Source: a virus. Taken from it: 64,000 nt of DNA. The notes beneath the pieces are model-generated. The model was not told the DNA's origin. It saw only the letters and a list, made by a program, of their open reading frames with translations, and made no database searches. The stretch is from the IMG/VR virus record IMGVR_UViG_3300021431_000125. One strand, written 5' to 3'. The position numbers were made by a program, and so were the translations under genes. Numbering within the stretch: position 1 is the first letter of the stretch; each line of letters begins with the position of its first letter. This document shows positions 1-36,494 of this stretch, one piece after another.

Positions 1-128
1 TCACAATCTGGACATTTGATATAATTGTCTGGGTTAATTTCATTTACAGTGTATTCAAATACACATCCGCATTTGGGACATATGGTTGTAAATGATTTTT
101 GTTTTCCGTGTTTATAGATTATCGCCAT
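1..128 (-). CDS. partial small Cys-rich (zinc-ribbon-like) protein; N-terminal part only, continues past window start
   Basis: ATG at 126-128 (minus) then ...CPKCGC...CPDC pairs; runs off window edge. Confidence 0.35.
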   Translation of the reverse strand, partial: MAIIYKHGKQKSFTTICPKCGCVFEYTVNEINPDNYIKCPDC

Positions 129-384
129 TTTGGTTGTCGTTTAATGTTATATAAACAGTGTCCGCCTTAAGAGGACGATTGATGTAGATAGTATCGGTTT
201 GGTAAACGGTATCAGTTATCGTAACCGTGTCAATTATGACTTGTGGGTCAACGTTAGTTGGTTCAGGGTCATGTTTGACCAGGATGAAAATTATCAACAA
301 CAGAAACGCTATGGCACAAATCTTCCAGGCGGCGCTTTCAGCATCACTCATTATTACCATAAAGCTCACTATTGGTTTGGTCAA
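112..384 (-). CDS. small membrane protein (one predicted TM helix)
   Basis: ORF track 90 aa; hydrophobic stretch AIAFLLLIIFILV. Confidence 0.4.
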   Translation of the reverse strand: MTKPIVSFMVIMSDAESAAWKICAIAFLLLIIFILVKHDPEPTNVDPQVIIDTVTITDTVYQTDTIYINRPLKADTVYITLNDNQNGDNL

Positions 385-498
385 TAACGAAGGTTTCCTT
401 TTGTGTCTGCAAAACAGTGCTTTTAGTCAGGAAAACTATTGAAATAATGGCAAAAATCAAGCCAGCTATTAAACCAGTTGTATTCATAAGCCAGGATT

Positions 499-801
499 TT
501 ATATCATACTGTTTATTTTTCCGACAAGCGTCTCTTCGGATATAGCACCGACACTCTTATCTGCGATTTCTTTGTTTTTGACATACATAAACGTCGGTAC
601 GCTGCGTATTTTGTACTGGGTTGCAAGCTCTGGGCTCTCATCAACGTCAACATCAATGATTTTGACCTTGCCTGCGAATTTTTCTGCTACATTATTGACG
701 ATGGGTTCCATTGCTCGGCATGGCGAGCACCAGGGAGCTCCGAATTTTACAACTACTACTGGGTTGTTGTCCAAAATTTCATTAAATTCCTTTAATTCCA
801 T
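499..801 (-). CDS. thioredoxin
   Basis: 100 aa Trx-fold length, active-site motif APWCSPC (CxxC) at expected position. Confidence 0.9.
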   Translation of the reverse strand: MELKEFNEILDNNPVVVVKFGAPWCSPCRAMEPIVNNVAEKFAGKVKIIDVDVDESPELATQYKIRSVPTFMYVKNKEIADKSVGAISEETLVGKINSMI

Positions 802-823
802 TGTATTTTTGGTTTTGAATTTA

Positions 824-1138
824 TTATTTTTTCTTCCTATTCCCGTGTTTTACGTTAGGGGATTTTTTCTTTTTCCTTATACATTTATGCTTGGTGCGCG
901 GCGCATTGTCATACTGTTCCTTTTCGGAAGCTTTTAAAAGTTCCATGAACTTTTTTTGGTCTTCCTCGGACATGTTATCATAAAGTTCACTGAATCCGCT
1001 TAACTGCATACCAATCCTGGTTTCAATCTCAGTAAGCTTCTGGTTTGCGAAATTCAACAGTTCTTCACTTTTTTTGTACCCCTTTTTAAGCTTGATTGAG
1101 GGTTTTGTCTCGTTACTATTCGTTGTACTGTTTTCCAT
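824..1138 (-). CDS. hypothetical protein, Lys-rich C-terminus
   Basis: ORF track; same-strand packed array. Confidence 0.5.
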   Translation of the reverse strand: MENSTTNSNETKPSIKLKKGYKKSEELLNFANQKLTEIETRIGMQLSGFSELYDNMSEEDQKKFMELLKASEKEQYDNAPRTKHKCIRKKKKSPNVKHGNRKKK

Positions 1139-1169
1139 ACTTCGGTTTATATTGTGTTATATGTATTCT

Positions 1170-1186
1170 TAATATACAGAAATTTT
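1170..1186 (-). promoter_or_regulatory. class-II element, extended -10-like TGTATATTAA (mRNA sense AAATTTCTGTATATTAA)
   Basis: 31 nt upstream of ATG 1138. Confidence 0.4.
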
Positions 1187-1187
1187 T

Positions 1188-1487
1188 TTATTTTATCGAA
1201 ACTTTCTGATTCGCGGAGTCATTGTCGCAACACGGTCTGCTCTTAAGCAGATTTGTCAAATCGTTGATAGCCTCGTTCTTTGTTTTGTATTGGTCGATAT
1301 GGAATGGGTGTGCACCTTCAATGGAAACATTCAGGTAATATATCGGTTCTGTTGGTATTTCACGACCGAATGGATAATGGTCAATACCAATAAAAGAATC
1401 AATTGAAAAAGAGGTTATTTTATTGATATTGAACCAAGTATCACCACCGTCTTTGGCGAAAAAATCTTTATTAATCCAAACTAACAT
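1188..1487 (-). CDS. hypothetical protein
   Basis: ORF track; packed array. Confidence 0.5.
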   Translation of the reverse strand: MLVWINKDFFAKDGGDTWFNINKITSFSIDSFIGIDHYPFGREIPTEPIYYLNVSIEGAHPFHIDQYKTKNEAINDLTNLLKSRPCCDNDSANQKVSIK

Positions 1488-1771
1488 ATTTTAATTGATT
1501 TTACTGTTTTGCCGCCACCAGCTGGTCTACTTGAAATGAATTTTTCAAAAACATCGTGTATTTCCAAACGTTTTGAATAGTCTTCTTCCACAAAAACAAT
1601 TGTATCACCATGGGTTGTTTTTCCACCTATCTTCACAAATGTATCCCCAGTAATATTGTCTATCTCCTTATAGCACCTAATTGATATAAACGCGTTATAA
1701 TTATATATAACTAATTTACCTGATATTGTAAAAGTATCCCTATCAACCCATGTTAGGCTTTGTCTTTCCAT
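1481..1771 (-). CDS. hypothetical protein
   Basis: ORF track; 4-bp overlap with neighbours. Confidence 0.5.
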   Translation of the reverse strand: MERQSLTWVDRDTFTISGKLVIYNYNAFISIRCYKEIDNITGDTFVKIGGKTTHGDTIVFVEEDYSKRLEIHDVFEKFISSRPAGGGKTVKSIKIC

Positions 1772-2826
1772 TACCCACCGATTTTTTCGATTCTGAAGGT
1801 ATCACAGAACATACAGTCAACATCCCCGTTACTGAAATGGTAATCCATTTCATTAGGTACAAGGTTGTTGTATAGTTTATAGACTAAAGCGTAATACGGT
1901 CCCTGCACGCACATCAGCTCACTGTTGGTAACGGTCAGGCTAAACGGCTTCGGGTGTTCATGGCGGGCATAGAAAGTAAAGTGTTTACGGTTTCTGGCAT
2001 TTGAGAAAAAGTTATATCCGTCCAACGTATATGTTTTAACGTGCACATCTATACCGATAGAACTTTTGCACATTTCAGGAAAATGTTCAAGTTTATCGTA
2101 ATCACCGTATGATGTCATATCCGAAAGTTCAATCGTAATCTCATCGGCATTGATTGAATTGATTTCATACGGAAAATTGAAGTAGCGACCCATAAGGTCA
2201 AGTATCTTGTAAACCATATAAGTCTCTACAGTGAAAACCCTGGACGGATTCAGCTGTCCGAAGAAAACCTGTCTGAAATATTTGCTGTTAATCACAAGAG
2301 GGTTGTCCGTGAACTTTTTGATGAATTCGTCATAAGTCGCGCTGTTGAACATGATGTTTTTGTCAACGTAATTCATAGCCTGAAAGTTGGCTTTACACAA
2401 GTCAATCGACACAAGGGTCTTACCGATGTTGCCTTCATGGAAAATATTCTTGGACTTTTGCTTGTATTCATTTTTGTTGACACCGTAACGGTTCATGTCC
2501 ATTTGGTTGAACTTTATATATGCCTCGTTTTCTTTCACTGCGTTGATGACAGTGTTGCGTATGTCCAAAAACCCTTCAACAAATGATTGCGGATTACCGT
2601 CAAATTGTTCTTCAATCAAAAGGCAGAGTTTGTCCCATTTTTCAATCGTATTAAAAACCTTATCATAGTTTTCTATGTGATAGAAAAAAAGTTTTTCGTT
2701 TACAACTGGCATTGGCAACCTGTGCTCGTTCACAAACCTTGTAGCCATTGGGAATGTCCACAAATCTTTATAAACGGTGTTAGAGTCAATACAATTTTTA
2801 ATCTGTTTTATAATATCAGTATTCAT
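1771..2826 (-). CDS. hypothetical protein (351 aa)
   Basis: long ORF, no motif recognised. Confidence 0.6.
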   Translation of the reverse strand: MNTDIIKQIKNCIDSNTVYKDLWTFPMATRFVNEHRLPMPVVNEKLFFYHIENYDKVFNTIEKWDKLCLLIEEQFDGNPQSFVEGFLDIRNTVINAVKENEAYIKFNQMDMNRYGVNKNEYKQKSKNIFHEGNIGKTLVSIDLCKANFQAMNYVDKNIMFNSATYDEFIKKFTDNPLVINSKYFRQVFFGQLNPSRVFTVETYMVYKILDLMGRYFNFPYEINSINADEITIELSDMTSYGDYDKLEHFPEMCKSSIGIDVHVKTYTLDGYNFFSNARNRKHFTFYARHEHPKPFSLTVTNSELMCVQGPYYALVYKLYNNLVPNEMDYHFSNGDVDCMFCDTFRIEKIGG

Positions 2827-3076
2827 TAGATTGTTGAAATGTTTATGTTTTCAAAATTTACAACTACAGTCACTATGTTCCTGTATCCGCTTACTCTGAG
2901 ACTGTCTCTGATATCGTCAGCAGTCTGTTGGTCATTGTATAAGTTGGAATCGAGAACATTTTTAAACCAATCTATACCGTTGCCGCTGATTTTGCAGAAA
3001 CTGTTGTCCTCAGGGTTATGGATTACATACCGAACGCCACTTTGTTCCATAAGATGTATCTGTTTAATTTGTTATT

Positions 3077-3243
3077 TAATATTTAACTATTTCTTCAAGT
3101 GCTTCATCATAAAAAACCTCAAAGCCATCCGACGTGTGCACGATATTGATGAAAAAAACAGCAATATTGTAGCCTCTTGATTCAAATTCGTTCAAAAGTT
3201 TTGTGACTTCAAGTTTATCTGAACAGTGTTTGCTTATTATCAT
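3077..3243 (-). CDS. small hypothetical protein (53 aa) directly downstream of class-I promoter element
   Basis: hand-translated ORF MIISKHCSDKLEVTKLL...; ATG 5 nt after GGTTATA. Confidence 0.3.
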
Positions 3244-3248
3244 ATGTC

Positions 3249-3275
3249 TATAACCGAATTTAACTTGTTTTTTCC
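3249..3275 (-). promoter_or_regulatory. class-I promoter-like element GGAAAAAA-N12-GGTTATA (mRNA sense)
   Basis: plus strand TATAACC-N12-TTTTTTCC; 5 nt upstream of ATG 3243; 28/29 identical to copy at 3544. Confidence 0.55.
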
Positions 3276-3327
3276 TTATTAATTATGTACTACCCAAAAT
3301 TTAAAAATGTATTCAGTAAAACCGTCT

Positions 3328-3543
3328 TCATCGTTCTACTTTTTTAGGAAAGTGCATATGCCCAACGTGCCATTTACCACAATGTGAGCATTTGTATGCT
3401 TTATACTTTGGATTCAAATTATTTTCAATTATAAACTTTTTAGCATCATATTCAGTGTCATATTCAACTTTGGACACCATTTTGTTTTTACCCTTGTGAG
3501 TCCAGTGTTCATTAAGACAACTATTTAATTTCCTTCTGTTCAT
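3328..3543 (-). CDS. small zinc-binding protein
   Basis: CSHCGKWHVGHMH motif; start may be internal Met (3480) because promoter element abuts annotated ATG. Confidence 0.5.
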   Translation of the reverse strand: MNRRKLNSCLNEHWTHKGKNKMVSKVEYDTEYDAKKFIIENNLNPKYKAYKCSHCGKWHVGHMHFPKKVER

Positions 3544-3570
3544 TATAACCGAATTTAACTCGTTTTTTCC
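3544..3570 (-). promoter_or_regulatory. class-I promoter-like element
   Basis: TATAACC-N12-TTTTTTCC; abuts annotated ATG 3543. Confidence 0.55.
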
Positions 3571-3576
3571 TTGTGT

Positions 3577-4395
3577 TTACCTGACAGGAATTGCACCAAT
3601 ACTGTCAAAACGTTCCCTACCATCCTCATTGGTTAGTTGGAAACCATCAAAGGCTTTCCAATAATGACGTGTGTAAGTAGCTGGAATATTTGGATTTGTA
3701 CGTTCTCCAGTGTATTCAAATTCCTCTTCAACACGGTAAATGAACCGACCGAATTTCTTTCCATCCTCATAATCGTTCCAGTCAACACCAGTCATTTCCT
3801 TAAGGAGGTTAATCTGCTCGTCTGCGTTCAGGCTTTCAAGTTGTTTGTGTGAAATTCTAGCCTGAGCTGCCTGTTGTTTTGAGTTACGGATACAGTCAAT
3901 CTGCCTGTAAAGGAACCAGGCAAACACATCATTATATGTAGGTAGATTCCAACACTTACAGTCAAACTGATATAGTGGCATATCAACAATAGTATCAATA
4001 ACTTGATATGTAGGGATATATTTAATCGCGTGTTGAGTCATTAGATTATTGAACTTTGCCGTTGCCAATGAAGCTATGACAGACAACATTTTGGTAAGTC
4101 TGTAACCGAAGAATGACTCTGTATTCTCATTCTCGAAATCAGTGATAACCAATGAAATCTCATCTGACTGAACATAGCCGAATTTGGCACCTTCCACTTT
4201 GGAACATACATATTTGGCTGTCTCATTCATCATATCAATGAAATTATCGTCAAACGGTTTCTTAAACTTGTCCTTAATCATAGTTGAAAAACTTCTACCG
4301 TCGAGCATGACCATTACATATGACTTAGGCATAAGCTTGTAATCGGTCAAGCCACGGAAATACTCCATTCTGTCTTTTAATGTGTTAAATCTCAT
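3577..4395 (-). CDS. Thg1-like protein (tRNA-His guanylyltransferase family 3'-5' nucleotidyltransferase)
   Basis: SYVMVMLDGRSF...KPFDDNFIDMMNETA and catalytic SDE (YVQSDEISL) align with Thg1 palm motifs; FDCKCWNLP...FAWFLYRQID region also conserved. Confidence 0.85.
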   Translation of the reverse strand: MRFNTLKDRMEYFRGLTDYKLMPKSYVMVMLDGRSFSTMIKDKFKKPFDDNFIDMMNETAKYVCSKVEGAKFGYVQSDEISLVITDFENENTESFFGYRLTKMLSVIASLATAKFNNLMTQHAIKYIPTYQVIDTIVDMPLYQFDCKCWNLPTYNDVFAWFLYRQIDCIRNSKQQAAQARISHKQLESLNADEQINLLKEMTGVDWNDYEDGKKFGRFIYRVEEEFEYTGERTNPNIPATYTRHYWKAFDGFQLTNEDGRERFDSIGAIPVR

Positions 4396-4578
4396 ATTCT
4401 GTATCCTTTAATGTCTGTATAATTTTTGTCGGGGTTTATGTCAAAAGCGCAAAACCATTCACTCCAGTTGGTGTCACTGTATTTTTCAAGGAATCTGGCA
4501 TATTCTTCACATTTGAATTTGTCGTGGAAGTATATTATGTGTGCATGTGACGTCAAGGGGTACCATCTTCCTCCGAAC

Positions 4579-5034
4579 TTATACATGATTTTGTACATTC
4601 CAGTATTTGTTAAATATGCTTATTCCGTCAACATTGCCATATTTGCCAGGCTTAATGTACATGTAACAATCTGTGTCACAGATAAGTTCATCTATAATGT
4701 CAGGATGTTCTTTGCATACACGCTGGAACAGTTTGTTTATCTCTCGTTTCTGCCAGTACCGAACTAATGCAACTATTCCAAGTTTATAGTTAAACCATTT
4801 GCCTATCTTATCAAGAGTTAGTTGAAACTTACTACGTTTCACGTTAAATTTACCGTTCCAGAACAGCCACGAGCCTCCCCATAGCATGAAAAAATCAGTA
4901 CGATAACACCCGAATTTCTCCTTACCACAAACAAAAATATGCAGTTCTCTCAAACCTTTGTCAAGTTCACGTATAGTTTTGTTAAACTCATCACCATACT
5001 TCTGGAACCATTCATCACCCCATATGTGCATCAT
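4579..5034 (-). CDS. hypothetical protein
   Basis: ORF track. Confidence 0.5.
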   Translation of the reverse strand: MMHIWGDEWFQKYGDEFNKTIRELDKGLRELHIFVCGKEKFGCYRTDFFMLWGGSWLFWNGKFNVKRSKFQLTLDKIGKWFNYKLGIVALVRYWQKREINKLFQRVCKEHPDIIDELICDTDCYMYIKPGKYGNVDGISIFNKYWNVQNHV

Positions 5035-5043
5035 ATCTGAAAT

Positions 5044-5910
5044 TTAATATATTATTTCATCTGTTTTTAAATCCCTTAGCAACCCTTCGTCGTCAATGTA
5101 GAAGCACTTGTGACAGTCAATGCAAATGTTGCTGTTGTATACGGCAGGTGCGTCTATTACCCAGGTGTTCCAGGTGTGCTCCTCAATATTATGGTCAAAA
5201 ACCTGTTTTAACTGTTGTGTATGTCCGAATATTTGTACATAAGGGGTAGGGGGGGCCATAAAAAATTCATGGCAGTCACTCCAAACAATTGACCCGCATT
5301 CGCAATGCCCTCCACGATAAAATCCTATATCGTTTAGGGCATATCTGAATTTGAAATCCCCTTTGTTGAACATGTCGGTTAACGTTTTGCATATGGTTTC
5401 GGCACTGGTGGATAACACGTTATAATTCTCAATCAGTTTGTTTCTCTCAATCCATTCATTCTGGACGCCAGCGTGTGAAAACAGGAATACCCTGTCACTG
5501 GCTGGTGTTGCTTCTGAATCCGTTAGCTGGTACATTTTACCAGGTATTGTTGCCATGTCGATTATTTTGAACAATTCATGGTTTGATGTGAATATGTCAA
5601 ACAATTTGTTGGTATATTTAACATCAAACCTGTTGGCTGATACGTTCCATCTGTCATTCACACTACGGCGATAATACGACAAATCGTGATTGCCAATGAG
5701 CAATGTTACTATATCCGAATGGGACTTGGCGAATTCCACAATTTCCTCAAAGTTATTGATTGAGTCTAAGTAACTGATGCCTTCATATTCATAAGGGTCA
5801 TGGTAATCCCCTAAAAAGACAATCTTTTCACATTCGTCCACAAATGGGAGGATATCTTTCCAAAACTGCCTGCCATGTACGTCTGGCACCAATATAATTT
5901 TCTTTTTCAT
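5044..5910 (-). CDS. calcineurin-like metallophosphoesterase
   Basis: MPP motifs PDVHGR, LGDYHD, GNHD in order. Confidence 0.8.
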   Translation of the reverse strand: MKKKIILVPDVHGRQFWKDILPFVDECEKIVFLGDYHDPYEYEGISYLDSINNFEEIVEFAKSHSDIVTLLIGNHDLSYYRRSVNDRWNVSANRFDVKYTNKLFDIFTSNHELFKIIDMATIPGKMYQLTDSEATPASDRVFLFSHAGVQNEWIERNKLIENYNVLSTSAETICKTLTDMFNKGDFKFRYALNDIGFYRGGHCECGSIVWSDCHEFFMAPPTPYVQIFGHTQQLKQVFDHNIEEHTWNTWVIDAPAVYNSNICIDCHKCFYIDDEGLLRDLKTDEIIY

Positions 5911-6305
5911 ATTTCAATTAGTGATATATTGGTTAATATATCGTGTTTAATCATAAAATGGTAAGTTGTGATAAGTTCACAATTAACATAACACTCGGAA
6001 ACTCCAATAATTTTATATGGACATTTAGGTGAATTTGTCATAGCTAAGAATAAGTCAACTCTAATTACTTTACTACCTTTAAGTGCGTTTACATCTTTTT
6101 CATCAAAATATGACCCAAAATATTCTTGTATTTTTTCAATGTCAGTTGTTGTTAATTCACCATCATAATCTAAATCAAATGTATAACATAACATTTGTTT
6201 TCTCGGAAGATATTGTCCCTCTGTTTTCCATATATACAAAGCTTCGGTGTTATATTTAATTTCTACATCAAATTTTAATTCCAGGCTTTCTCTAGTGTAT
6301 TTCAT
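5907..6305 (-). CDS. hypothetical protein
   Basis: ORF track. Confidence 0.5.
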   Translation of the reverse strand: MKYTRESLELKFDVEIKYNTEALYIWKTEGQYLPRKQMLCYTFDLDYDGELTTTDIEKIQEYFGSYFDEKDVNALKGSKVIRVDLFLAMTNSPKCPYKIIGVSECYVNCELITTYHFMIKHDILTNISLIEI

Positions 6306-6646
6306 CGCTTAATTATTTCCATAGGGACAAAGACATCATATCCGTCGTCGTCTTCAAAATGATTAATTGTTTCCTCATATTGATGCCCCCATTTATGACG
6401 CACATACACAAACTCTCCATTACCCCATCTTGCTTTGCTGGCGTTTCTGCATTCGCCTTCATAGACCTTTCCAAAGACAAGTTCTGACTTCGGAATTGCC
6501 CTGACTGAGGCTGGCGAAACATTCTTTTCGTTGGCGAATATGTTAATGTTCACCTGTAATTCATTGTTTGTCATAAATACTGTCAATATAATACATACAA
6601 CCTTTTTTTGTACTTGAATGATATAAATCCTTGTCGTTGATATCAT
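6302..6646 (-). CDS. hypothetical protein (start probably internal Met ~6574)
   Basis: ORF track; overlaps upstream gene. Confidence 0.4.
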   Translation of the reverse strand: MISTTRIYIIQVQKKVVCIILTVFMTNNELQVNINIFANEKNVSPASVRAIPKSELVFGKVYEGECRNASKARWGNGEFVYVRHKWGHQYEETINHFEDDDGYDVFVPMEIIKR

Positions 6647-7001
6647 TTACCACCCAATCCCATTTTGTTTTCCTTATCGTATATCCTTTATAAAGGTAGT
6701 ACCCTTTAAAGATTCTCCATGGTTTGTCCGAGATTAGCTTGTTGATGAATTTTTTCCATTGTGGGTCGCTTTGCGGTAATTCCTTGCTTGTGTCGTCCAT
6801 ATCGAACAAATAGTAAAACGGAATGTGCAAGTTCCATACAATCGCTTGTTTAAGATTATATACCCTATTCTTACATTCTTCGGTCAGACCACAACAATGC
6901 ATGGCACAACCATAACAATCATCCGTCATACCCATCAGATTACAATGTCCGCCATCAGGATGCCCCATATATATTCCATTATCTTTAATAACTTCAATCA
7001 T
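6561..7001 (-). CDS. Cys/His-rich putative metal-binding protein
   Basis: HPDGGHCNLMGMTDDCYGCAMHCCGL. Confidence 0.5.
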   Translation of the reverse strand: MIEVIKDNGIYMGHPDGGHCNLMGMTDDCYGCAMHCCGLTEECKNRVYNLKQAIVWNLHIPFYYLFDMDDTSKELPQSDPQWKKFINKLISDKPWRIFKGYYLYKGYTIRKTKWDWVVNDINDKDLYHSSTKKGCMYYIDSIYDKQ

Positions 7002-7461
7002 TATGCACAGTGTTTAAAATGTCAATAGCTTTATAGCATTCACGTGTAGTTAAGCCATGTCTGTTGTCGCAATACACAAAATGTCTTATCTGTTCCTCCA
7101 GCATGTCCCTGTCATCATCGAGTATGGCATATGACTCCAAAGGTTCATGGTCTTTTTCGTAATCGTCAATCCACGCTTTAATTTCCTCGCCCCTTATACG
7201 GCTTGCGCAGTATGGTGTGACACTGGTGATTTTATATTTGAACCCGCATTCTTCAAGTCTTTTTTGTGTTTCGTTAGCATTACCGCGCCATGAAGACGAG
7301 AGTACAACCTCTGCGCCAGTTTCTTCGATAATATAGTTAAGGAACACTACAGCCCGTTCATCAATAAACTGGTCAGAATCAAGTTTTTTGGATTTTATAC
7401 GGTATACAGCATAATCCTCGGAATTCATAATGCCGTCGATATCAAGAAACAATGCCTTCAT
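6994..7461 (-). CDS. HAD-superfamily phosphatase-like protein
   Basis: motif I FLDIDGI, motif II VLSSSW, motif IV ILDDDRD. Confidence 0.6.
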   Translation of the reverse strand: MKALFLDIDGIMNSEDYAVYRIKSKKLDSDQFIDERAVVFLNYIIEETGAEVVLSSSWRGNANETQKRLEECGFKYKITSVTPYCASRIRGEEIKAWIDDYEKDHEPLESYAILDDDRDMLEEQIRHFVYCDNRHGLTTRECYKAIDILNTVHND

Positions 7462-7470
7462 ATGTGTTTG

Positions 7471-7773
7471 TTAATATATAAGGAGTTCATATCCTAAAGA
7501 TTCTATGTAATCCCCGATTTCTGATATACTAAAATCACTCAATTTTTGATGATAGTATTTCCCAATTTCCCTGTTTTTCTCATTCTCTTTAAAAAACGTA
7601 GCTCTTTCATACTCATCCATGGATAACAGGATATCTTCAAGACACACGTTTACGTGTTCAGCGCCATCCTGTTCCAGTTTCTGCTTTTCATATAGCGGAA
7701 GTGTATCGATAATTTTTTTCAGATTGATTAATGTATTCATGACTATATAACCGTTTTTATGATGTTTTTTCAT
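7471..7773 (-). CDS. hypothetical protein (start 7773 or 7740; track extends to 7815 through promoter elements)
   Basis: ORF track; class-I and class-II promoter elements lie in the annotated 5' end. Confidence 0.45.
   Translation of the reverse strand: MKKHHKNGYIVMNTLINLKKIIDTLPLYEKQKLEQDGAEHVNVCLEDILLSMDEYERATFFKENEKNREIGKYYHQKLSDFSISEIGDYIESLGYELLIY
7746..7771 (-). promoter_or_regulatory. class-I promoter-like element
   Basis: TATAACC-N12-TTTTTTC. Confidence 0.5.
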
Positions 7774-7775
7774 TA

Positions 7776-7792
7776 TTAATATACAGAAATTT
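7776..7792 (-). promoter_or_regulatory. class-II extended -10-like element
   Basis: TTAATATACAGAAATTT on plus strand. Confidence 0.35.
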
Positions 7793-7808
7793 CGTGAACT
7801 TGGTAAAA

Positions 7809-8429
7809 TCACCACCAGAGATGGAGAAAATATTTTGCAAACAAATCCAGACCGTTTTGTACTTTGACATTTTCGCGTTCCAAAATTTCACAACGTTTAT
7901 CCAATAGTTCCTGGTCATAGTTTTTGCCGTGCACAATATCATAATTGCCGTCTGGACGTTTCCTTTCCTTGTAATAACCAACCCAGTCAATACCCAATGA
8001 CTCATCAAGTTCATCGTCGTATTTGTCATAGTTGACTATATGGTCAAAAGCATAAATCATCTGGTCGATTGCGTCAAGCCAGTCTTCAAATTTATCAAAC
8101 TCTGGAGGGTAGCCATTAACAACTTTCTTGAATTCGACAAGCCTTGGCAATATGTATTTTGCTATAGTGTGGCCAAGATTCCATAGTTCGGTGTCGTCAA
8201 ACCCGCGCTCGATGCGTTGAGTTTTGTATTTGACGAGCCTTTCAACCTGTTTTGCCTGGTCGTTTGTCTGCCAGTAATAATCGTCAAACGCTTCGATACA
8301 GCTTCCGTTGCAGTTTGGAACGTTTATAGGGTCTACAGCATTAGCGGATTTCAATACCAAGTTCTTCAATTTAGCGTATTTGTTACGCTCTTTGTTTCGT
8401 TCACGGCTTCTTTTGTTCATAAGATTCAA
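7809..8429 (-). CDS. hypothetical protein
   Basis: ORF track. Confidence 0.5.
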   Translation of the reverse strand: MNLMNKRSRERNKERNKYAKLKNLVLKSANAVDPINVPNCNGSCIEAFDDYYWQTNDQAKQVERLVKYKTQRIERGFDDTELWNLGHTIAKYILPRLVEFKKVVNGYPPEFDKFEDWLDAIDQMIYAFDHIVNYDKYDDELDESLGIDWVGYYKERKRPDGNYDIVHGKNYDQELLDKRCEILERENVKVQNGLDLFAKYFLHLWW

Positions 8430-8672
8430 ATCAGTTTTAATTAAAGTGTATTGTAATTAATGTTTAATGGTACGAAATTGTCTTGTATTTCCGCCTCTTC
8501 AATATAAGGACCTTCGAATTTGAAAAGTTCAAGTTGATGATTATACACGTTATCTTTAAGATATTTCAAAAGTTCTTCTAATTCATGCAAGTTTTTTTCG
8601 GCATTAACCTTATCCGAATACCATTTACTGGTCTCCGTGTACCAGTGTTCCCATTCGCAGGTGTCAGCGTTA

Positions 8673-9305
8673 TTATAGCACAAGGTTGCTCTGTATATTT
8701 TCATTATCAAGATTTTTAAGTTGGTTAATAAGGGTTGTTATGTATTCTACAGCCCCTTTGCTTTTATAGTGTATCTCTTTTTCGGTTTCTGTTGAATTCT
8801 GGTCTATCGGAAACATCATTTCTTCATAAAACCGTTTCCAACTTCTTAGATGCATCAATAACTCGTCGACATCAAAATACAGTTTTTCTTTGAGTGGCGG
8901 GTTTTTTTCCTTTTCTAAGACCTTGTTGTAAACTTCCTCAAAATCGTTTAAATTGAAAGGTGTCATCTTATTGATTTTATAGCATTTTAAACCAAGCTTG
9001 TTACCGATTAATATTCTTACAATGTAAAGATATTCGATATCCCAGCTTATGTTATATACGTTTTCATAACCGCTGTCAATTGAACATATTGATTTTGCGA
9101 CATCGTCTATAGTAAAGAGAGACTTGTCGTTCTGTATGTACTTCTCCAGTTGGTTTTCAAGTTTTTTACCGACACCTGCTGGATAACCGTCATAGTGATG
9201 GTATATGTACGTCGGGCAAATCCTACTGCCTTCTTGCTCTATGATAATACTACATCTGGTTGCTATTGCCATATCATTTGTTTTTAATCGGAAGTTTTTT
9301 GACAA
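8673..9305 (-). CDS. hypothetical protein
   Basis: ORF track. Confidence 0.5.
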   Translation of the reverse strand: MSKNFRLKTNDMAIATRCSIIIEQEGSRICPTYIYHHYDGYPAGVGKKLENQLEKYIQNDKSLFTIDDVAKSICSIDSGYENVYNISWDIEYLYIVRILIGNKLGLKCYKINKMTPFNLNDFEEVYNKVLEKEKNPPLKEKLYFDVDELLMHLRSWKRFYEEMMFPIDQNSTETEKEIHYKSKGAVEYITTLINQLKNLDNENIQSNLVL

Positions 9306-10200
9306 ATCTTCTTATATCCTCAATGTCGTTAATTTCGTCAACAACGCCCTGGATTCCTGTAGCCAGTTCAGATAGCATTGTTTTGAGCTCATCGGTTGAC
9401 AATTTCACAATATCATTCAAACAGTCTAGGTCTACATAATCGTCCAAGTTGGTCTTGTCTGTTTGAATACCTTGTTTGAGCTTTTCAGTTCTTTTTGTAA
9501 AATAATCATGAATGTAGTTCAAGTCATATCCCTTCAAATTTTCTTTGTATTCTGGATATATATCGGACAGTGCGGTATTCAACGCCTCATCAAAAAGCTC
9601 CTTTCCGTAGTTTTCTTCAGGTATAAACAAGCAAAATTTGCGAAATGTAGCAATTGTGTCATGTAAGCTTGCAACATTATTCGTGCGAATCATTGGATAA
9701 TATCTGCTGCCGAGTTGAGAATAAATCTGAATTGAAGTTTTTTCAACTCGGAATTCTGAACAAATCCTGTTTATGCGTTCGACATTGCAGAATGCATATT
9801 CATCATTAAGCAAAACTGTATAAACTGGATGGTTTGACAAATCAAGTGTGTTGTTGATAATATCCACGTCAGTAAACTCCAATCCCTCAACTGGTATACA
9901 GTTATGGAGACTGATGAAAGCATAACCGTTTATCCGAAACAGTTTATACTCAACACCGCTTTCGGTATAATATATGATGTTTGTTCCGAAAACATTTTCA
10001 AAACATTCTTTAATTTGTTCCTCACTAGCCTTGGTAATCCCAAGTATATGATATGCACTGTCATATTTCATATGCCCAATGTCGTCTTTCCCGCCTGTAA
10101 AGAACAGCATGTCTTCTGGAAAATGTACCTCGACGCTGTCAGCGTCCTTGGGATTTAAACTATAGTGTCCAAATTTCAATAAAGTTCTTTTCGTTTTCAT
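9274..10200 (-). CDS. hypothetical protein (308 aa)
   Basis: ORF track. Confidence 0.55.
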   Translation of the reverse strand: MKTKRTLLKFGHYSLNPKDADSVEVHFPEDMLFFTGGKDDIGHMKYDSAYHILGITKASEEQIKECFENVFGTNIIYYTESGVEYKLFRINGYAFISLHNCIPVEGLEFTDVDIINNTLDLSNHPVYTVLLNDEYAFCNVERINRICSEFRVEKTSIQIYSQLGSRYYPMIRTNNVASLHDTIATFRKFCLFIPEENYGKELFDEALNTALSDIYPEYKENLKGYDLNYIHDYFTKRTEKLKQGIQTDKTNLDDYVDLDCLNDIVKLSTDELKTMLSELATGIQGVVDEINDIEDIRRFVKKLPIKNK

Positions 10201-10826
10201 TGTCCGTCTTTTTTAATAAGTTCAAAACTATAAGCATACATGTAAGGATTTTCATCCCAAAACTGGTTTCCGTTGATTTTCTTAATAAGGCATTCAAACG
10301 CTTCTTTGGCTGTTGGAAACCATTGCCTACTGGTGTATTTTGGTGTATGTATATCAAACGCATATTTCGGAAGACCGTTTTCCTCCTGCACTTTATCAAT
10401 GAAAATACCTTCTCTCATACAGTCTTCCTCACTAATATCCTGCAGTTTTTCAAGTTTCACATCAGTGACTCTAAGAAAATGCTGCATATACTGACCACTG
10501 ACAAACATCTTGTTATTCCAGCCTGGTAATTCATGAACAGGATAATAACCAGTTATAGTAATACCGTCAAATGTTTTAGAGCCAAATATAAGTGTGTCTG
10601 GTTCACTGTAAAGACTTTCAATTTCTTTGTATGGCTGGGCAACCCCAAGTACATAATCCACATTATACCACGGTTTCTTGAATTGTCCGTTCCATATCAG
10701 TTCCTGATTCTCATTTTCAACCAGTATCTTGTGAGCACGTCTTCTGGTCATTGTCTTAGTACCGTTAAGTACTGCCTGTTGAAGACCGTATTTGGTGCTG
10801 AACATAATTTTATTAATATTAGCCAT
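10197..10826 (-). CDS. ASCH (PUA-like) domain protein
   Basis: N-terminal IMFSTKYGLQQAVLNGTKTMTRR fits ASCH GxKTxExR signature. Confidence 0.55.
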   Translation of the reverse strand: MANINKIMFSTKYGLQQAVLNGTKTMTRRRAHKILVENENQELIWNGQFKKPWYNVDYVLGVAQPYKEIESLYSEPDTLIFGSKTFDGITITGYYPVHELPGWNNKMFVSGQYMQHFLRVTDVKLEKLQDISEEDCMREGIFIDKVQEENGLPKYAFDIHTPKYTSRQWFPTAKEAFECLIKKINGNQFWDENPYMYAYSFELIKKDGQ

Positions 10827-11739: not shown

Positions 11740-11761
11740 TATATTTTACAATATTGTGTTA

Positions 11762-12010
11762 TTAAAATTCTTCTAATTTAATATAATAAACATATTTTTT
11801 GTCTGGGCGCTGACCTGCTTCACAAGGGAATGCTCCAGCACTGGAAACGCATTTCCTGCAAATATCCCACCATATACATTTGGTACACTCTTCCTCACCA
11901 CCTGTTCCTTCAACACATTTAACTTTCATTTTAGGCACATTGTCTTCGGTCAACAGAAACACCTCGTTAATACTTGGGCATGTCCATTCAGTTTTAATAT
12001 CATATGTCAT
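11762..12010 (-). CDS. small Cys-rich protein
   Basis: CPSINE...CVEG...CTKCIWWDICRKC. Confidence 0.45.
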   Translation of the reverse strand: MTYDIKTEWTCPSINEVFLLTEDNVPKMKVKCVEGTGGEEECTKCIWWDICRKCVSSAGAFPCEAGQRPDKKYVYYIKLEEF

Positions 12011-12183
12011 ATTCAGGATTCCTTTCTAGATATATTTTTAACTTTTTGTCAAGTTCAGCATTAACTCCATAAGTATACCAAAGCGTTTCACTTAATTCAT
12101 TAAAAGTTTTACAATGATATTTCTTCAAATAGTTATTGAGTTCGTCAAAATTACTAATTAACACATTTCCGTCACTGTACATA

Positions 12184-12576: not shown

Positions 12577-12578
12577 AT

Positions 12579-13526: not shown

Positions 13527-13538
13527 AATCTATTGTTC

Positions 13539-15025: not shown

Positions 15026-15360
15026 TAAGCTATTTTTATCTGTTTTTTGCTAACATCTGGTTTTGGGTGTGGCACTTCATCAAAATTCAGTTCATCCAAA
15101 GCATCATATATCTTTTTGATATTTGAAATTGATTCTCTATTTGTACACCAAAGGGTTTCAGTTATTGAGTTACTGCCACTAACTTTATATCTGATATTCA
15201 ATTCTCCAATCAAAAGGTTTCCAACCCTTACACTTGGGTCAAAGAACACATTTGTTATTTCTGGTGTTATTTCAACCAATTCCTGGGAATCATAAGCCTT
15301 TAATTCATCGCCATCATATACTTTAATTATCGTGTCTAACAGTATGTACTTTGATTTCAT
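15025..15360 (-). CDS. hypothetical protein
   Basis: ORF track. Confidence 0.5.
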   Translation of the reverse strand: MKSKYILLDTIIKVYDGDELKAYDSQELVEITPEITNVFFDPSVRVGNLLIGELNIRYKVSGSNSITETLWCTNRESISNIKKIYDALDELNFDEVPHPKPDVSKKQIKIA

Positions 15361-15800
15361 AGTTCACGTTTTGATTGTCTGTCAATATCCCTCTCTTTAA
15401 TATCCCTGCGCTTGTCGTATGTTTTTTTGCCACTGGCAATAGCAACCACCACTTTGCACATGTTTCTCTCATTGATGAAAAGTTTATATGGCACAACAGT
15501 CATTCCTTTGATTTTAACCTGTTCGTATATTTTCTTCAATTCACTTTTGTTCAAGAGCAGTTTCCTGTCCCTGTTGTAATCCTTGACTGTATACGTGTCG
15601 TGTTCACGTTTTGGAGTCACCACCGAATTTTTGAGAAACAACTCATTTCCAACAAAATGGCAATAAGATTCAGAAATGTTGACACGCCCATCTCTGATTG
15701 CGCTGATTTCCGCGCCGTTCAACACAATGCCAGCAATATAGGTATCCTTGAACTCATAGTTGAAACTTGCCTTTTTGTTTGTAATTTCAAATCTTTTCAT
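15357..15800 (-). CDS. smpB: SsrA-binding protein SmpB
   Basis: NKKASFNYEFKDTYIAGIVLNGAEISAIRDGRVNI and C-terminal tail GKKTYDKRRDIKERDIDRQ match SmpB throughout; 147 aa. Confidence 0.85.
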   Translation of the reverse strand: MKRFEITNKKASFNYEFKDTYIAGIVLNGAEISAIRDGRVNISESYCHFVGNELFLKNSVVTPKREHDTYTVKDYNRDRKLLLNKSELKKIYEQVKIKGMTVVPYKLFINERNMCKVVVAIASGKKTYDKRRDIKERDIDRQSKREL

Positions 15801-19461: not shown

Positions 19462-20397
19462 TTAAAACAATTCAAATTTAACAAGCGCGTCAGTTAGCTT
19501 ATCCAGGTCGCAACTCCAATGGCTTTTGTTATATGAGGCGTAATAGTCATTTACCTTGTAATCCTCGATTTCGCAACAATCCGCCCGAATTCCCTTGTAT
19601 GTCAGGAAAGGAATTGCTGGATAAAGTATTGTCAGTAATTTGTCAAATTCGTCAAACTCACACGGTTTATCGCCACCGACCGACTGTTCGTGACCGTCAT
19701 ATGACCATTCAGTGCCACCAGTTATCCACGGTTCACCATATAAAAAGTTGCCTTTGACACAAAAACCGACTTGGTTGGCAGCACTATAGACATAAGCTCT
19801 TGTACGTTCAGCACTGTCAGCTTCATATACATTCCAGATTTCACGGTGTTTGCTTTCAACCAAAATATCACACTCAATATCCAGACTATTGGCAATTTTG
19901 GCTGAAGCCACCGCTTTTATTTTCTCCACATCGACAGGTTCAAAAATACAGGTTTCTATTGTGGATTTTGCACTGCGAGTCGGATTGGCGAATGACCTTA
20001 TCATGTCGTTTTTGATACACAGTTCGCGGTTATCGTCAAAATCTATAATGGTGAATTTGTACGAACTATCGTGTAACATGCAATGATAACGGTTGACCAA
20101 AGTGTATATCAGATTAGCCAAATCATTGTTAGTCAAACACAAGCAATCGACAAATACCGTGGCTTTTTCTGGTTTGTACGAAAACCATATGCTGTCGTCA
20201 TATGAACGCTCATAATTTGCTGTAAAAACAGCCTCTCTAAGACGTTCTTCAAGTTTTTTAATTGAACAATCATATGTACTATCCAAATTCAAGTATTCAG
20301 CCTCTTCTTTTTTCTGAAGCTTTTCGCTAACCAAACGCTTGAAAAGCGTGGTTTTACCACTGCCTGGCAATCCATGTGCAATCAAAAACTTTTTCAT
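19462..20397 (-). CDS. P-loop kinase, polynucleotide-kinase (T4 Pnk N-domain)-like, with unassigned C-terminal domain
   Basis: N-terminal FLIAHGLPGSGKTTLFKRL Walker A as in Pnk/zeta-type kinases; class-I promoter 30 nt upstream. Confidence 0.6.
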   Translation of the reverse strand: MKKFLIAHGLPGSGKTTLFKRLVSEKLQKKEEAEYLNLDSTYDCSIKKLEERLREAVFTANYERSYDDSIWFSYKPEKATVFVDCLCLTNNDLANLIYTLVNRYHCMLHDSSYKFTIIDFDDNRELCIKNDMIRSFANPTRSAKSTIETCIFEPVDVEKIKAVASAKIANSLDIECDILVESKHREIWNVYEADSAERTRAYVYSAANQVGFCVKGNFLYGEPWITGGTEWSYDGHEQSVGGDKPCEFDEFDKLLTILYPAIPFLTYKGIRADCCEIEDYKVNDYYASYNKSHWSCDLDKLTDALVKFELF

Positions 20398-26359: not shown

Positions 26360-26737
26360 TTATAAACATTTCAATGACTTTAAATATGAATTCAAATATG
26401 AAAGTATGTTTTCCCTTCCGTCTGGATTGGATGAATGGCATTCGAATTTCGGTAACGGCATGTTGTATTTCATACAAGTCTCAACCAAGACTTTCGCACA
26501 GTCAAGTCCAGTCTTTTCTTCACCCAAATCGTGGTCGAAGCAAACCAGCGCGGGAAACAGTTCCGCAGGGTCGTCCATAACCTTTGACATCCAGTCACAG
26601 AATTTTTCATATGTTTTAATCCACACGACCGCAGGTTCACCTTTAAAATCGTGTGAGTTTTTCTGTATCACTGGATACCAGTCGTAACTGAAAGGATTCC
26701 TCCTGTCATCTAACCATATAACCAAATTGTTGAACAT
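26360..26737 (-). CDS. hypothetical protein
   Basis: ORF track. Confidence 0.5.
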   Translation of the reverse strand: MFNNLVIWLDDRRNPFSYDWYPVIQKNSHDFKGEPAVVWIKTYEKFCDWMSKVMDDPAELFPALVCFDHDLGEEKTGLDCAKVLVETCMKYNMPLPKFECHSSNPDGRENILSYLNSYLKSLKCL

Positions 26738-30455: not shown

Positions 30456-31250
30456 TTATTCAACGGGTTTTGGACAAAGTTTCACCAACTCGCTTCTCAA
30501 ATTGTTGAATTTTTCCTGGTACTTCTCCTTATAATAGTCCCATGTGGGGGTTTCAGCATTTTTTATTTCCCACCACAAATCGTTGGCGCATGAATAATCG
30601 TATATCTTGCCAGTCTGTGCAATCTGTATTGCAAACATGTAGATGCGCATTGAGTGCCACAGCGATTTTTGTCCAATCCTTAAATCATAGTCTTTTTCAA
30701 CAGTCAGCTTTTTCTTGGCTTTTACCCACGAATTACTGCAGACAGCCGATACCGATTCACGCAGTTTCCATTTGTCAAGTTTGAAATACTCCTGGTACAT
30801 GCCTTTCGAATCACCTTTCAGGGTCGGTGAAAAAATACACTCCAAGGCGGCTATATCGTGTTTTTCAATTTGTGCAATGAAGTCTTTTTCACACACAAAC
30901 TGATAGTCTACGTTGGCAAATTTATCTTTATATTCGAAAATATGTCTTGGATATTGCGACAGCAAATTATAAAAACTGTCGGGTACCACCACTAAAAAGT
31001 CAGTATCTGAAACGCCTTTTTCATAAGTACCATATACACGAGACCCACGGGCAACAGCGAACAAATATGTGGCGCTTTCAAGCTCATTGACCAATTCTGT
31101 TTCATATTTGTCAACATATTCATCCAGAATACTTTTCAATACTGGAGTGACGTAACTGTTTTCATGTATATAAGGGCTTGCTGCATTTTTGTTATACAAT
31201 TCCCTTAGGACATCTACCTGTTCCTTCAAGATTTCATATTTGTTTTTCAT
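30456..31250 (-). CDS. predicted nucleotidyltransferase (Pol-beta superfamily; COG3541/pfam10127-like)
   Basis: LFAVARGSRVYGTYEKGVSDTDFLVVV = hG[GS]x9-13DhD NTase signature plus helical C-domain. Confidence 0.6.
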   Translation of the reverse strand: MKNKYEILKEQVDVLRELYNKNAASPYIHENSYVTPVLKSILDEYVDKYETELVNELESATYLFAVARGSRVYGTYEKGVSDTDFLVVVPDSFYNLLSQYPRHIFEYKDKFANVDYQFVCEKDFIAQIEKHDIAALECIFSPTLKGDSKGMYQEYFKLDKWKLRESVSAVCSNSWVKAKKKLTVEKDYDLRIGQKSLWHSMRIYMFAIQIAQTGKIYDYSCANDLWWEIKNAETPTWDYYKEKYQEKFNNLRSELVKLCPKPVE

Positions 31251-34060: not shown

Positions 34061-34999
34061 TTACTTTATGTTCTCAATCATTTCGATATTATCCATGTAC
34101 CACTTGTGGAAATTGTGGTATTCAACATCACCGACTTCATTAACCACATTACGAAGGTCATCGTAGTCACAATGCTTGATTTTGACAATGATGCGGTTAC
34201 CGTGCGGGTCTTTGATTGGGATGACTGGTCTTGCAACAATGCCTTCTTCGATAAAATCAGGATTGTCAACATTAGGAACCTTGGTTTTGAAGCCTTCAAT
34301 CACCATTTTCTCAGCCTCCTCGATAGTCATTTGACCAAGATAAGGGACAACATCCAAACCGAGATTGCCACAGTATTCGTCCAACATATTGATTGGAATC
34401 CACCAACCCTGCTGGTAGATATCAAATACACTGAAACGGTTATTCTCCTTGTCATAGTTGCCGCCGCATTTCTGGATTTTCTTTCCGAAAAACTCGCCAT
34501 AGATGTATACAGGAACCTCTTCCAGCTGTACACCATAGAAATTGCCGTTCACTTTGAAGTCAACCTCATTGATGTTTGCGATAGGTTCACCACACTCAGC
34601 CCAATAATACTGAATCTGGTTTTTGCCATTCAGAACTGGGGTGAAACGGGCACTCTCTGGCGGAAACATTTCAGTCAGGATTGGTTTGATTCGTTCAATA
34701 ACCTGGTCAAGCATGGCTTTCTGACCCGTTCCGACAATATCGGCGTTATCAGTCTTGCCGCCACAGAAACATTCGCCTGTTGATGGAAGATAGATAATTT
34801 TCGAATTCGTACCGTCAATCTTTGAGAAACAGTCGAATTTCAAATCCTTGATATACTCCATGTAATCGTCGGAGAAACAACCCATTATAATTTTGTTTTG
34901 GAATTTAGCCCAAATCTTGTTCGGAAGTTCCACCTTGTTAAGGTTTTTGTAACGACGGTACAAGGTGTTGATTTTAGTATAAGTTAATGTCTTTTGCAT
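34061..34999 (-). CDS. Rnl2-family ATP-dependent RNA ligase (covalent nucleotidyltransferase superfamily)
   Basis: motif I FSKIDGTN (KxDG), III IYGEFFG, IV EGIVARP, V IIVKIKH in correct order and spacing. Confidence 0.75.
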   Translation of the reverse strand: MQKTLTYTKINTLYRRYKNLNKVELPNKIWAKFQNKIIMGCFSDDYMEYIKDLKFDCFSKIDGTNSKIIYLPSTGECFCGGKTDNADIVGTGQKAMLDQVIERIKPILTEMFPPESARFTPVLNGKNQIQYYWAECGEPIANINEVDFKVNGNFYGVQLEEVPVYIYGEFFGKKIQKCGGNYDKENNRFSVFDIYQQGWWIPINMLDEYCGNLGLDVVPYLGQMTIEEAEKMVIEGFKTKVPNVDNPDFIEEGIVARPVIPIKDPHGNRIIVKIKHCDYDDLRNVVNEVGDVEYHNFHKWYMDNIEMIENIK

Positions 35000-36450: not shown

Positions 36451-36462
36451 TTTTTTTGAAGA

Positions 36463-36488: not shown

Positions 36489-36494
36489 AACAAA

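Follow-up and report, generated by a model that had tools for sequence, protein, structure and literature searches.

A Thg1-like protein of the bacterial type with covarying nucleotide-site residues in a huge uncultured phage

Why does a huge bacteriophage carry a gene for a Thg1-like protein (TLP), and on which RNAs would its product act? The question is raised by a stretch of 64,000 nucleotides from the viral record IMGVR_UViG_3300021431_000125, hereafter called the window, in which a minus-strand open reading frame (ORF) of 272 codons runs from ATG to stop and, with its stop codon, fills positions 3577..4395 exactly; the plus-strand frame across the same positions contains many stops. The ATG is supported as the start by M1 and F3, which are invariant in 42 homologues, and 42 columns of the protein, every catalytic residue among them, remain invariant in its clade down to 52% identity. 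As judged from profile, sequence and modelled-structure comparisons, the gene encodes a Thg1-like enzyme of the bacterial-type TLP class. We regard this identification as correct and robust, and the product is almost certainly an active TLP. The family and fold of the protein are demonstrated, and so are an intact active site and conservation of a strongly purifying kind.

The Pfam profile Thg1 (PF04446) matches the protein with E=1.3e-27 and 96.7 bits, where 29.2 is the curated cut-off, and covers positions 4-130 of the 130 in the profile; PHROG 4717, labelled 'tRNA-His guanylyltransferase', matches at 4.7e-60. Among proteins of solved structure, the best sequence match is the TLP of Bacillus thuringiensis (BtTLP; PDB 4kgk, 1.7e-32, query residues 5-228), followed by weaker matches to eukaryotic Thg1 (~1e-7) and to the archaeal TLP 5axk (1.4e-4). 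An AlphaFold2 model built from 42 homologues (predicted local distance difference test, pLDDT, 90.3; predicted TM-score, pTM, 0.88) has the polymerase-like palm and fingers fold of the solved Thg1/TLP structures, and in a Foldseek search against the PDB its first 32 hits are all Thg1/TLP chains, headed by BtTLP (4kgm_A; E=4e-21, TM 0.84 relative to the target, 268 aligned columns, nearly full length). The hits after these are Cas10 and GGDEF proteins, the known palm-domain kin of Thg1/TLP, at E ~2e-3 or weaker. The N-terminal, catalytic palm domain (aa 10-152; 3940..4368, minus strand), here given by the extent of the PF04446 match, is modelled as a strand-helix-strand arrangement with elements E26-33, H50-66, E70-76, E79-84 and E144-151. 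The C-terminal helical and beta-hairpin 'fingers' half (aa 153-272; 3580..3939, minus strand) was placed by alignment to Candida albicans Thg1 and BtTLP and carries YRQIDCIRNSKQQ at the position of the eukaryotic HINNLYN motif. A sequence-only reading of this DNA had already aligned the protein with the Thg1/TLP palm domain, had quoted the peptides SYVMVMLDGRSF, KKPFDDNFIDMMNETA, QSDEISL and FDCKCWNLPTYNDVFAWFLYRQIDC, and had proposed a hidden Markov model search with PF04446; all four peptides are found in the minus-strand translation, and profile, model and structure search agree with the alignment.

The catalytic residues were located by counting along the HMMER alignment to human Thg1 (3otb), and their codon positions were computed from the ORF start at 4395. 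D32 (codon 4300..4302, minus strand) corresponds to D29 of human Thg1, the first metal-binding carboxylate, and S77-D78-E79 (4159..4167, minus strand; also aligned to 4kgk) corresponds to human S75-D76-E77, the activation serine and the two catalytic carboxylates. The equivalences to human Thg1 are thus D32=D29, D78=D76, E79=E77, S77=S75 and K46=K44, with K102 as the conserved lysine that is K96 in yeast numbering, and the residues for activation of the 5' end (yeast K44 and S75) are present as K46 and S77. None of 120 close homologues deviates at D32, S77, D78, E79 or K102, and neither does any full-length sequence among the 150 best family representatives (clustering at 50% identity); K46 is kept in 110 of the 120 and is K, L or R in the wider clade. 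The Asp/Glu triad formed by D32, D78 and E79, whose absence the sequence-only reading had named as the outcome that would speak against it, is aligned and invariant.

What the protein does not have is HINNLYN. The segment DCIRNSKQQ aligns with DCHINNLYN of C. albicans Thg1, its IRNSKQQ resembles ASKNSIS at the same place in BtTLP, and an RQxD(A/C)x(K/R)NS motif stands where eukaryotic Thg1 has HINNLYN. The histidine of this motif (H154) stacks on the anticodon base G36 and gives specificity for tRNA-His (PMC6471195). Because the motif is absent, we class the TLP as bacterial-type rather than as a eukaryotic Thg1, and there is therefore no reason to expect specificity for tRNA-His; by its sequence, the protein is a bacterial-type TLP with an intact catalytic core and not a tRNA-His-specific Thg1. 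The comparison with solved relatives is in line with this placement. BtTLP (4KGK/4KGM), the best solved relative by both sequence and fold, has the carboxylate triad, the activating lysine (K43, here K46), the serine, the triphosphate-binding lysine (K96, here K102) and the RQxD...N motif in common with the query, and likewise lacks HINNLYN. The two proteins differ in being bacterial and phage-borne, respectively, are only ~30% identical, and are set apart by a 10-residue insertion in the 120s and by four exchanges, with M30 in place of R28, S37 in place of H35, K147 in place of the R133 equivalent and R99 in place of an asparagine. The eukaryotic Thg1 enzymes (human, 3OTB; C. albicans, 3WBZ; yeast, 5XOX) have the fold and the two-metal palm active site in common with the query at ~20% identity, whereas HINNLYN is confined to them. 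Opposite A73, true Thg1 adds G-1 without a template, a reaction at which bacterial TLPs are poor (PMC6471195, PMC3061083).

The four exchanges relative to BtTLP form a pattern of their own. R27, R133 and H34 of yeast Thg1 are nucleotide-contacting residues in the characterised enzymes (PMC6471195), and in the query they are M30 (for R27), K147 (for R133) and S37 (for H34). The three contacts to the triphosphate of the incoming nucleoside triphosphate (NTP), yeast R27, K96 and R133, are represented by an exchanged M30, an invariant K102 and a conservatively replaced K147. The site of yeast R27 is occupied by methionine in 102 of the 120 close homologues and by methionine or histidine throughout the clade. 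R99 is invariant in this clade; no yeast equivalent has been named for it, asparagine stands there in BtTLP, and human R92 aligns with it. We compared window positions 3577-4395 with L005:20001-20813, L004:10001-10795 and proteins P0121-P0270. Among the 150 representatives, 60 combine a residue other than R30 with S37, R99 and K147, and 52 have the canonical combination of R30, H37, no R99 and R147. R99 is present in all 66 representatives that lack R30, compared with only 7 of the 72 that keep it, and the loss of R30 with gain of R99 is accompanied by the changes of H34 to serine and of R133 to lysine. Since loss of R30 is perfectly coupled to R99, the pattern suggests a compensating swap, that is, a compensated relocation of an arginine within the nucleotidyl-transfer site; it could also mean an altered preference for nucleotide or substrate.

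The closest homologues in GenBank phages belong to the Prevotella Lak megaphages (53-54% identity, full length), and Lak TLPs such as that of Lak-A1 (MK250016, 439028-439837), whose records are unannotated and leave the gene unnamed, have the same M30/S37/R99/K147 combination, as does a 349-kb metagenomic contig. The TLPs of cultured large phages, which carry the annotation 'tRNA-His guanylyltransferase' (Bacillus phage G gp378, the Bastille-like Bacillus phages, Vibrio 1.170.O, Yersinia fHe-Yen9-04 and Pectobacterium CBB, with Pseudomonas 201phi2-1 from PMC2904730), are members of the same PHROG and Pfam family, are 33-38% identical to the query and come from large genomes rich in accessory RNA and nucleotide genes. 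Those examined, from Bacillus, Vibrio and Yersinia phages, differ from the query in retaining the canonical R30 and R147 without R99; H37 is kept in three of the four, and the Yersinia phage fHe-Yen9-04 has S37. The covarying active-site swap, which defines a large clade found on huge-phage-sized contigs, is new here.

What would such an enzyme do in a huge phage? We assign a probability of roughly 0.6 to the reading that it serves as a template-dependent 3'-to-5' RNA polymerase restoring RNA 5' ends, most likely those of tRNA acceptor stems. The mechanism is modelled on the TLPs of B. thuringiensis and M. acetivorans, both of which have been characterised. In a first step, which uses K46 and S77, ATP or GTP would activate a 5'-monophosphate RNA end. 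An NTP that pairs with the opposite strand would then come in, and its 3'-OH would attack this end under two-metal catalysis by D32, D78 and E79, while K102, K147 and probably also R99, the arginine specific to the clade, would bind the triphosphate. In this way, missing 5' nucleotides of a tRNA acceptor stem could be restored, including G-1 of tRNA-His opposite C73, and the pool of host and phage-encoded tRNAs could be kept usable during infection. BtTLP prefers 5'-truncated tRNAs of any identity over G-1 addition (PMC3061083), and published comparative genomics reached the same functional reading for phage Thg1 (PMC2904730, PMC7824862). The physiological substrates of bacterial-type TLPs are still considered an open question (PMC3061083, PMC6471195). 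We infer substrate, timing and source of damage alike: that tRNA 5' ends are the substrates in vivo seems to us slightly better than an even bet, and that a host defence nuclease causes the damage, as opposed to processing errors or ordinary turnover, is a tentative suggestion with the odds against it.

On the same reading, the TLP would act alongside, and not in an operon with, a set of other RNA-end genes, for which we use the definitions of 'Swiss Army Knife' (SAK) HAD phosphatases and of RlaP given in PMC7824862. These genes are all on the minus strand. A calcineurin-like metallophosphoesterase, which is a candidate RNA 3'-end healing enzyme (5044..5910; Pfam Metallophos 9.2e-7), lies 650 bp upstream of the TLP gene and belongs to the same tight string of genes. 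Its match to PHROG 8238 'RNA ligase' is to the phosphoesterase part, and its Lak-A1 homologue is located 6 kb from the Lak-A1 TLP; a functional link between the two may be supposed. At higher coordinates lie a stand-alone HAD phosphatase of the SAK RNA-repair family (6994..7461; HAD_SAK_2 2.7e-24, PHROG 1818), also with a Lak-A1 homologue, and the tmRNA-binding ribosome-rescue factor SmpB (15357..15800; Pfam SmpB 1.6e-46, NCBIfam equivalog 160.7 bits against a cut-off of 130), of which Lak-A1 has a 46% identical copy at ~507065-507484 (L016). No tmRNA was found in the window by ARAGORN or Rfam, nor in the whole Lak-A1 genome by ARAGORN, and the phage SmpB would therefore need the host tmRNA. 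Further along are a cREC (cyclic-phosphate processing receiver) domain protein (26360..26737; Pfam cREC_REC 2.2e-19) with a DUF1848 gene directly beside it (26781-27809; DUF1848 2.5e-82), a Pol-beta superfamily nucleotidyltransferase, possibly RlaP-like (30456..31250; NTP_transf_2 2.8e-5, 24.8 bits against a cut-off of 21), with a GS...D.D motif in its translation and a 43% identical homologue in Lak-A1, and an ATP-dependent RNA ligase (34061..34999; PF09414 RNA_ligase 1.2e-13, PHROG 548 3.5e-20). The best relatives of the ligase are of the Rnl2 type but distant: T4 Rnl2 matches at 0.002, and the NCBIfam Rnl2 score is far below the cut-off. A linkage of cRec domains to RNA ligases has been described (PMC7824862), and cRec has also been tied to the processing of cyclic phosphates derived from NAD and ADP-ribose.

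The sequence-only reading had named six accessory genes, and five of them, the RNA ligase, SAK-type HAD, metallophosphatase, Pol-beta nucleotidyltransferase and SmpB, are confirmed. The sixth, called 'Pnk-like' (19462..20397, minus strand), is a P-loop kinase with a C-terminal domain that received no assignment. Its Pfam P-loop hits are sub-threshold, there is no PHROG match, and no specific Pnk match was obtained by Pfam, PHROG, NCBIfam, PDB sequence search or Foldseek; the best folds found for its AlphaFold2 model (pLDDT 82) are PSTK, PFK-2 and dTMP kinases, all weak (E ~1e-4, TM ~0.3). Homologue search, model and Foldseek agree on a generic P-loop kinase fold only, which leaves the Pnk label unsupported.

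The RNA-end genes are dispersed over ~31 kb (3.6 to 35 kb of the window) among dozens of small ORFs and do not form an operon. The only tight string consists of the metallophosphatase, a 151-aa ORF, a 68-aa ORF and the TLP gene, whose ends overlap or lie 9 bp apart, and a scan for promoter and terminator consensus around the TLP gene did no better than chance (38 promoters against 32.8±5.1 in shuffled sequence, and 3 terminators against 4.3). A conserved TLP operon was rejected: the 326-kb contig L001 is collinear with window positions 112-14118, but it is a close relative (protein identity 50-84%), and the neighbours of the TLP gene in distant clade members differ completely. Proximity to a ligase is found in one of six distinct contexts, the divergent relative L021, where the TLP gene is succeeded after 200 nt by the gene for an RNA ligase. 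In two unrelated phages, Vibrio phage 1.170.O and Yersinia phage fHe-Yen9-04, a nucleotidyltransferase of the CCA-adding type is encoded at a distance of 1.3-3 kb from the TLP. L021 (CATEWF010000001.1, 83.5 kb) is the only match in bacterial and archaeal species-representative genomes, where it is labelled an uncultured Mycoplasmatota metagenome-assembled genome (MAG); with GmrSD, a NadD-like nucleotidyltransferase, RNA ligase, a protein kinase and an SSB-like gene around its TLP, it resembles a piece of a huge phage that ended up in a bacterial MAG during binning.

We examined the 541-kb Lak-A1 genome whole, as the nearest available full genome, and found homologues of only 10 of the 130 window ORFs. 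Six of these ten are the TLP (54%), SmpB (46%), the nucleotidyltransferase (43%), the metallophosphatase (31%), the SAK-HAD phosphatase (31%) and the RNA ligase (29%), and in Lak-A1 they are scattered from 214 to 507 kb. This sharing is in keeping with very divergent huge phages having retained a set of RNA-end-processing genes together, and the finding that RNA-end enzymes are among the few window genes shared with Lak megaphages is new here. Lak-A1 and the window are otherwise dissimilar, with GC contents of 26% and 37%, no shared gene order, and no sign in the window of recoding. Given the ~31-kb scatter and the unconserved neighbourhood, the 'toolkit' proposed from sequence alone therefore applies to gene content and not to any operon or pathway so far demonstrated. 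The proposed link to host anticodon nucleases is indirect at best: by inference from the published TLP mechanism, an enzyme that extends 5' ends on a template finds none in the anticodon loop and cannot by itself mend a break there.

Several observations weigh against restoration of tRNA 5' ends as the function. We know of no host nuclease that truncates tRNA 5' ends as a defence, and our literature search found no paper that characterises a phage TLP biochemically. The window contains no tRNA gene, and hence no tRNA-His, and no RNA family at the Rfam gathering threshold; no tRNA genes lie within 5-10 kb of the TLP gene in ten other loci, and an eleventh has a single tRNA-Leu ~5 kb away, so that linkage of the TLP to tRNA genes was rejected on the window and eleven other loci. 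The immediate neighbourhood is not conserved beyond close relatives, and the genes next to the TLP differ in L003/L004, L021, L023 and Lak-A1. The argument from co-retention is weakened because enzymes are detectable at longer range than small ORFan proteins. In addition, R27 and H34, with which Thg1 touches the incoming or the activating nucleotide, are exchanged in this clade, and its nucleotide or substrate preference may for this reason differ from that of BtTLP. The tRNAs of Lak-A1 likewise show no general need for 5' editing. Dictyostelium DdiTLP3, which edits the 5' ends of mitochondrial tRNAs by templated rebuilding of the acceptor stem, is the only TLP with a proven physiological repair role (PMC6471195), and its system needs tRNA genes with encoded 5' mismatches. 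The 32 tRNAs of Lak-A1 have almost all perfectly paired acceptor stems, with mismatches in pairs 1-3 in only four ARAGORN folds, and 5' editing of the mitochondrial type was rejected as a general explanation. The four include an atypical 93-nt Tyr call, an irregular tRNA-His and a tRNA-Met that is possibly initiator-like; initiator tRNAs carry a 1:72 mismatch.

A first rival explanation is that the protein is a dedicated tRNA-His guanylyltransferase, which adds G-1 to host or phage tRNA-His for charging by HisRS. The family name, the PHROG label and GenBank annotations all say so, and BtTLP adds G-1 opposite C73 as efficiently as yeast Thg1 does (PMC3061083, Table 1). The anticodon-reading HINNLYN motif (PMC6471195) is absent, however, bacterial TLPs kinetically prefer truncated tRNAs of any identity (PMC3061083), and the window has no tRNA-His to be modified. 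Moreover, the tRNA-His(GUG) gene of Lak-A1 already encodes G-1, as in bacteria generally, together with C73, so that the canonical bacterial route can do without the enzyme; a missing G-1 was accordingly rejected as the need that the TLP serves, and the encoded G-1 also counts against the repair reading. This tRNA-His (L008:8671-8744) is peculiar in its acceptor stem, where the standard register leaves none of the pairs 4:69 to 7:66 matched, or else a one-nucleotide bulge (U69) shifts the register, and Infernal aligns only model positions 8-63 with 31.7 bits, just above the gathering score. Such a stem might be miscleaved by RNase P and lose G-1, and miscleavage followed by repair is conceivable. 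On balance, we consider a dedicated guanylyltransferase improbable.

We judge equally improbable a second explanation, in which the TLP is one step in the healing and sealing of RNAs other than tRNA: a kinase or phosphatase would clean the ends, the TLP would fill in or activate (as App-RNA) a recessed duplex 5' end, and the ligase would seal. Bacterial operons join Thg1 with polynucleotide kinase, Macro and RNA ligase, generation of 5'-App ends for ligation has been suggested (PMC2904730), and TLPs with broader RNA recognition have been noted (PMC6471195). Of the components of the T4 Pnkp and Rnl type, the window contains the RNA ligase, and the HAD_SAK_2, Metallophos and cREC proteins are candidates for a 3'-phosphatase or cyclic phosphodiesterase whose activity on RNA ends would follow from their family descriptions. 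The adjacent ligase of L021 and the co-retention of ligase, phosphatases and nucleotidyltransferase with the TLP in Lak-A1 favour such a pathway. Against it stand the 30 kb that separate ligase and TLP in the window, the lack of a specific Pnk signal for 19462-20397, and the restriction of TLP-ligase adjacency to one context in six.

The active-site swap opens a further possibility, which we hold to be somewhat less probable still. The huge-phage TLP clade, comprising the query, the Lak proteins and the 60 of 150 representatives, might be a functionally distinct 3'-5' polymerase in a counter-defence module that has NAD+ salvage and RNA-ligase genes as companions; its rebuilt nucleotide site might take another NTP or substrate, for example non-tRNA RNAs or an undescribed 5'-end lesion inflicted by a defence system. 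NAD+ salvage genes (NAPRTase, NadD-like, AAA_28 NadR-type kinase and isochorismatase/PncA-like) lie 1-5 kb from the TLP gene in three of the six contexts (L003/L004:7938-9134; L021:2081-2698 and 11942-12724; L023:10779-11303 and 12111-13343), and none was seen in the window. These same neighbours, together with the clade-wide remodelling of nucleotide contacts (R27 to M/H, H34 to S, R133 to K, invariant R99), could also be read as repurposing away from RNA polymerisation, such that the enzyme makes or consumes a nucleotide signal, like GGDEF and Cas10 proteins, in a counter-defence island. We think this very unlikely. The weak Foldseek hits to Cas10 and GGDEF reflect known palm-domain kinship; there is no exchange of S77, the carboxylates or K102, and K46 persists in most close relatives; the fingers domain, by which TLP structures hold the acceptor stem of the tRNA, is complete, with the model aligning full-length to BtTLP and to the M. 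acetivorans enzyme (MaTLP); and huge-phage accessory islands mix unrelated functions, which makes adjacency weak evidence. Finally, a decaying or non-functional relic, for which we found no supporting point, is effectively refuted by the intact frame, by an identical protein in other samples, by a 97% identical orthologue in the independently recovered same phage and by the 42 invariant columns.

Megablast found no nucleotide match of the window among GenBank phages. A 123-kb IMG/VR viral contig (3300028048_000083) is 93-99% identical to window positions 1-13647 and is the one that carries the 97% identical orthologue, and relatives of the TLP protein are encoded on contigs of 216-386 kb. Nearly all genes of the window are on the minus strand. 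The source is a huge uncultured phage, distinct from the Lak lineage yet sharing its TLP gene. Lak phages are known to use stop-codon recoding, with which the suppressor-type tRNAs of Lak-A1 are consistent (two with CUA anticodons, L010:26129-26201 and 27034-27108, and one with a UUA anticodon, L011:41204-41276). For the window, recoding of this kind was rejected, as reading TAG or TGA as sense gave no convincing longer genes across intergenic gaps; TAG is rare as a stop, ending 7 of 117 minus-strand ORFs.

The sequence-only reading had also described this activity as rarely reported in viruses, which is wrong: 157 GenBank phage records have a TLP homologue, and there are a dedicated PHROG family and papers from 2010 and 2021. 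Most of the 40 records listed among the 157 are already annotated 'tRNA-His guanylyltransferase', and the hosts include Bacillus, Prevotella, Caulobacter, Mycobacterium, Erwinia, Brevundimonas, Vibrio, Aeromonas and Burkholderia. The Thg1 family as a whole comprises 4887 representatives at E<=1e-3 and 3137 at E<=1e-10 (50% clustering). Anantharaman, Iyer and Aravind (2010; PMC2904730) reported Thg1 in phage 201phi2-1 and mimivirus and proposed that phage Thg1 repairs RNA against host defences. Iyer et al. (2021; PMC7824862), with a data set including Lak-B8, described Thg1 as a sporadic member of a jumbo-phage RNA-repair repertoire alongside RNA ligases, Pnk, SAK-type and Pnk-fused HAD phosphatases, calcineurin-like phosphatases, cRec domains, RlaP nucleotidyltransferases and CCA-adding enzymes. 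The functional idea of RNA repair is plausible and, in essence, already published.

The window also has features beyond its RNA-end genes. It encodes an ECF-type sigma factor (Sigma70 regions 2 and 4; 23060-23599), two D12-class N6-adenine DNA methyltransferases (14189-15025 and 35053-35826), a protein with only the N-terminal (DUF262) domain of GmrSD (52201-52800) and an SPFH/Band-7 protein (39674-40465). An R2K-clade ATP-grasp protein lies near a 315-aa protein with an A1S_2505-family N-terminal domain and a DprA-like (PHROG 768) C-terminal half (10819-11739 and 12579-13526), and both are 76-79% conserved in L001. Three plus-strand genes (37678-39137) form a small island in the almost entirely minus-strand window and coincide with the only 4-kb bin of positive AT skew (36001-40000). 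In the right half, paralogous families without Pfam hits recur (32355-32756, 52797-53279, 54674-55102 and 59340-59708; 57663-58118 and 61234-61914; 56615-57661 and 59721-61232), with similar N-termini of the forms '..EDYV(S/T)(F/Y)..AKLLKEKGF', 'MI(H/Y)YTT(I/T)EQSKKL(I/V)ELGL' and 'MENYK(E/Q)KYE..', and a three-gene cassette is apparently duplicated there (~56.6-58.1 kb and 59.3-61.9 kb).

For the biology of these phages, the strong conservation of a TLP implies that infection gives rise to RNA 5' ends that are damaged or incomplete, and it would be a tractable setting in which to find the natural substrate of the enzyme. The gene adds a well-supported member to the family and leaves unchanged the published picture of sporadic Thg1/TLP enzymes in jumbo-phage RNA repair. 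If the huge-phage clade did prove to be a distinct polymerase, these phages would indicate that hosts have an immune mechanism, so far unknown, directed against the 5' ends of RNA, and bacterial-type TLPs would gain the physiological context that they have long lacked.

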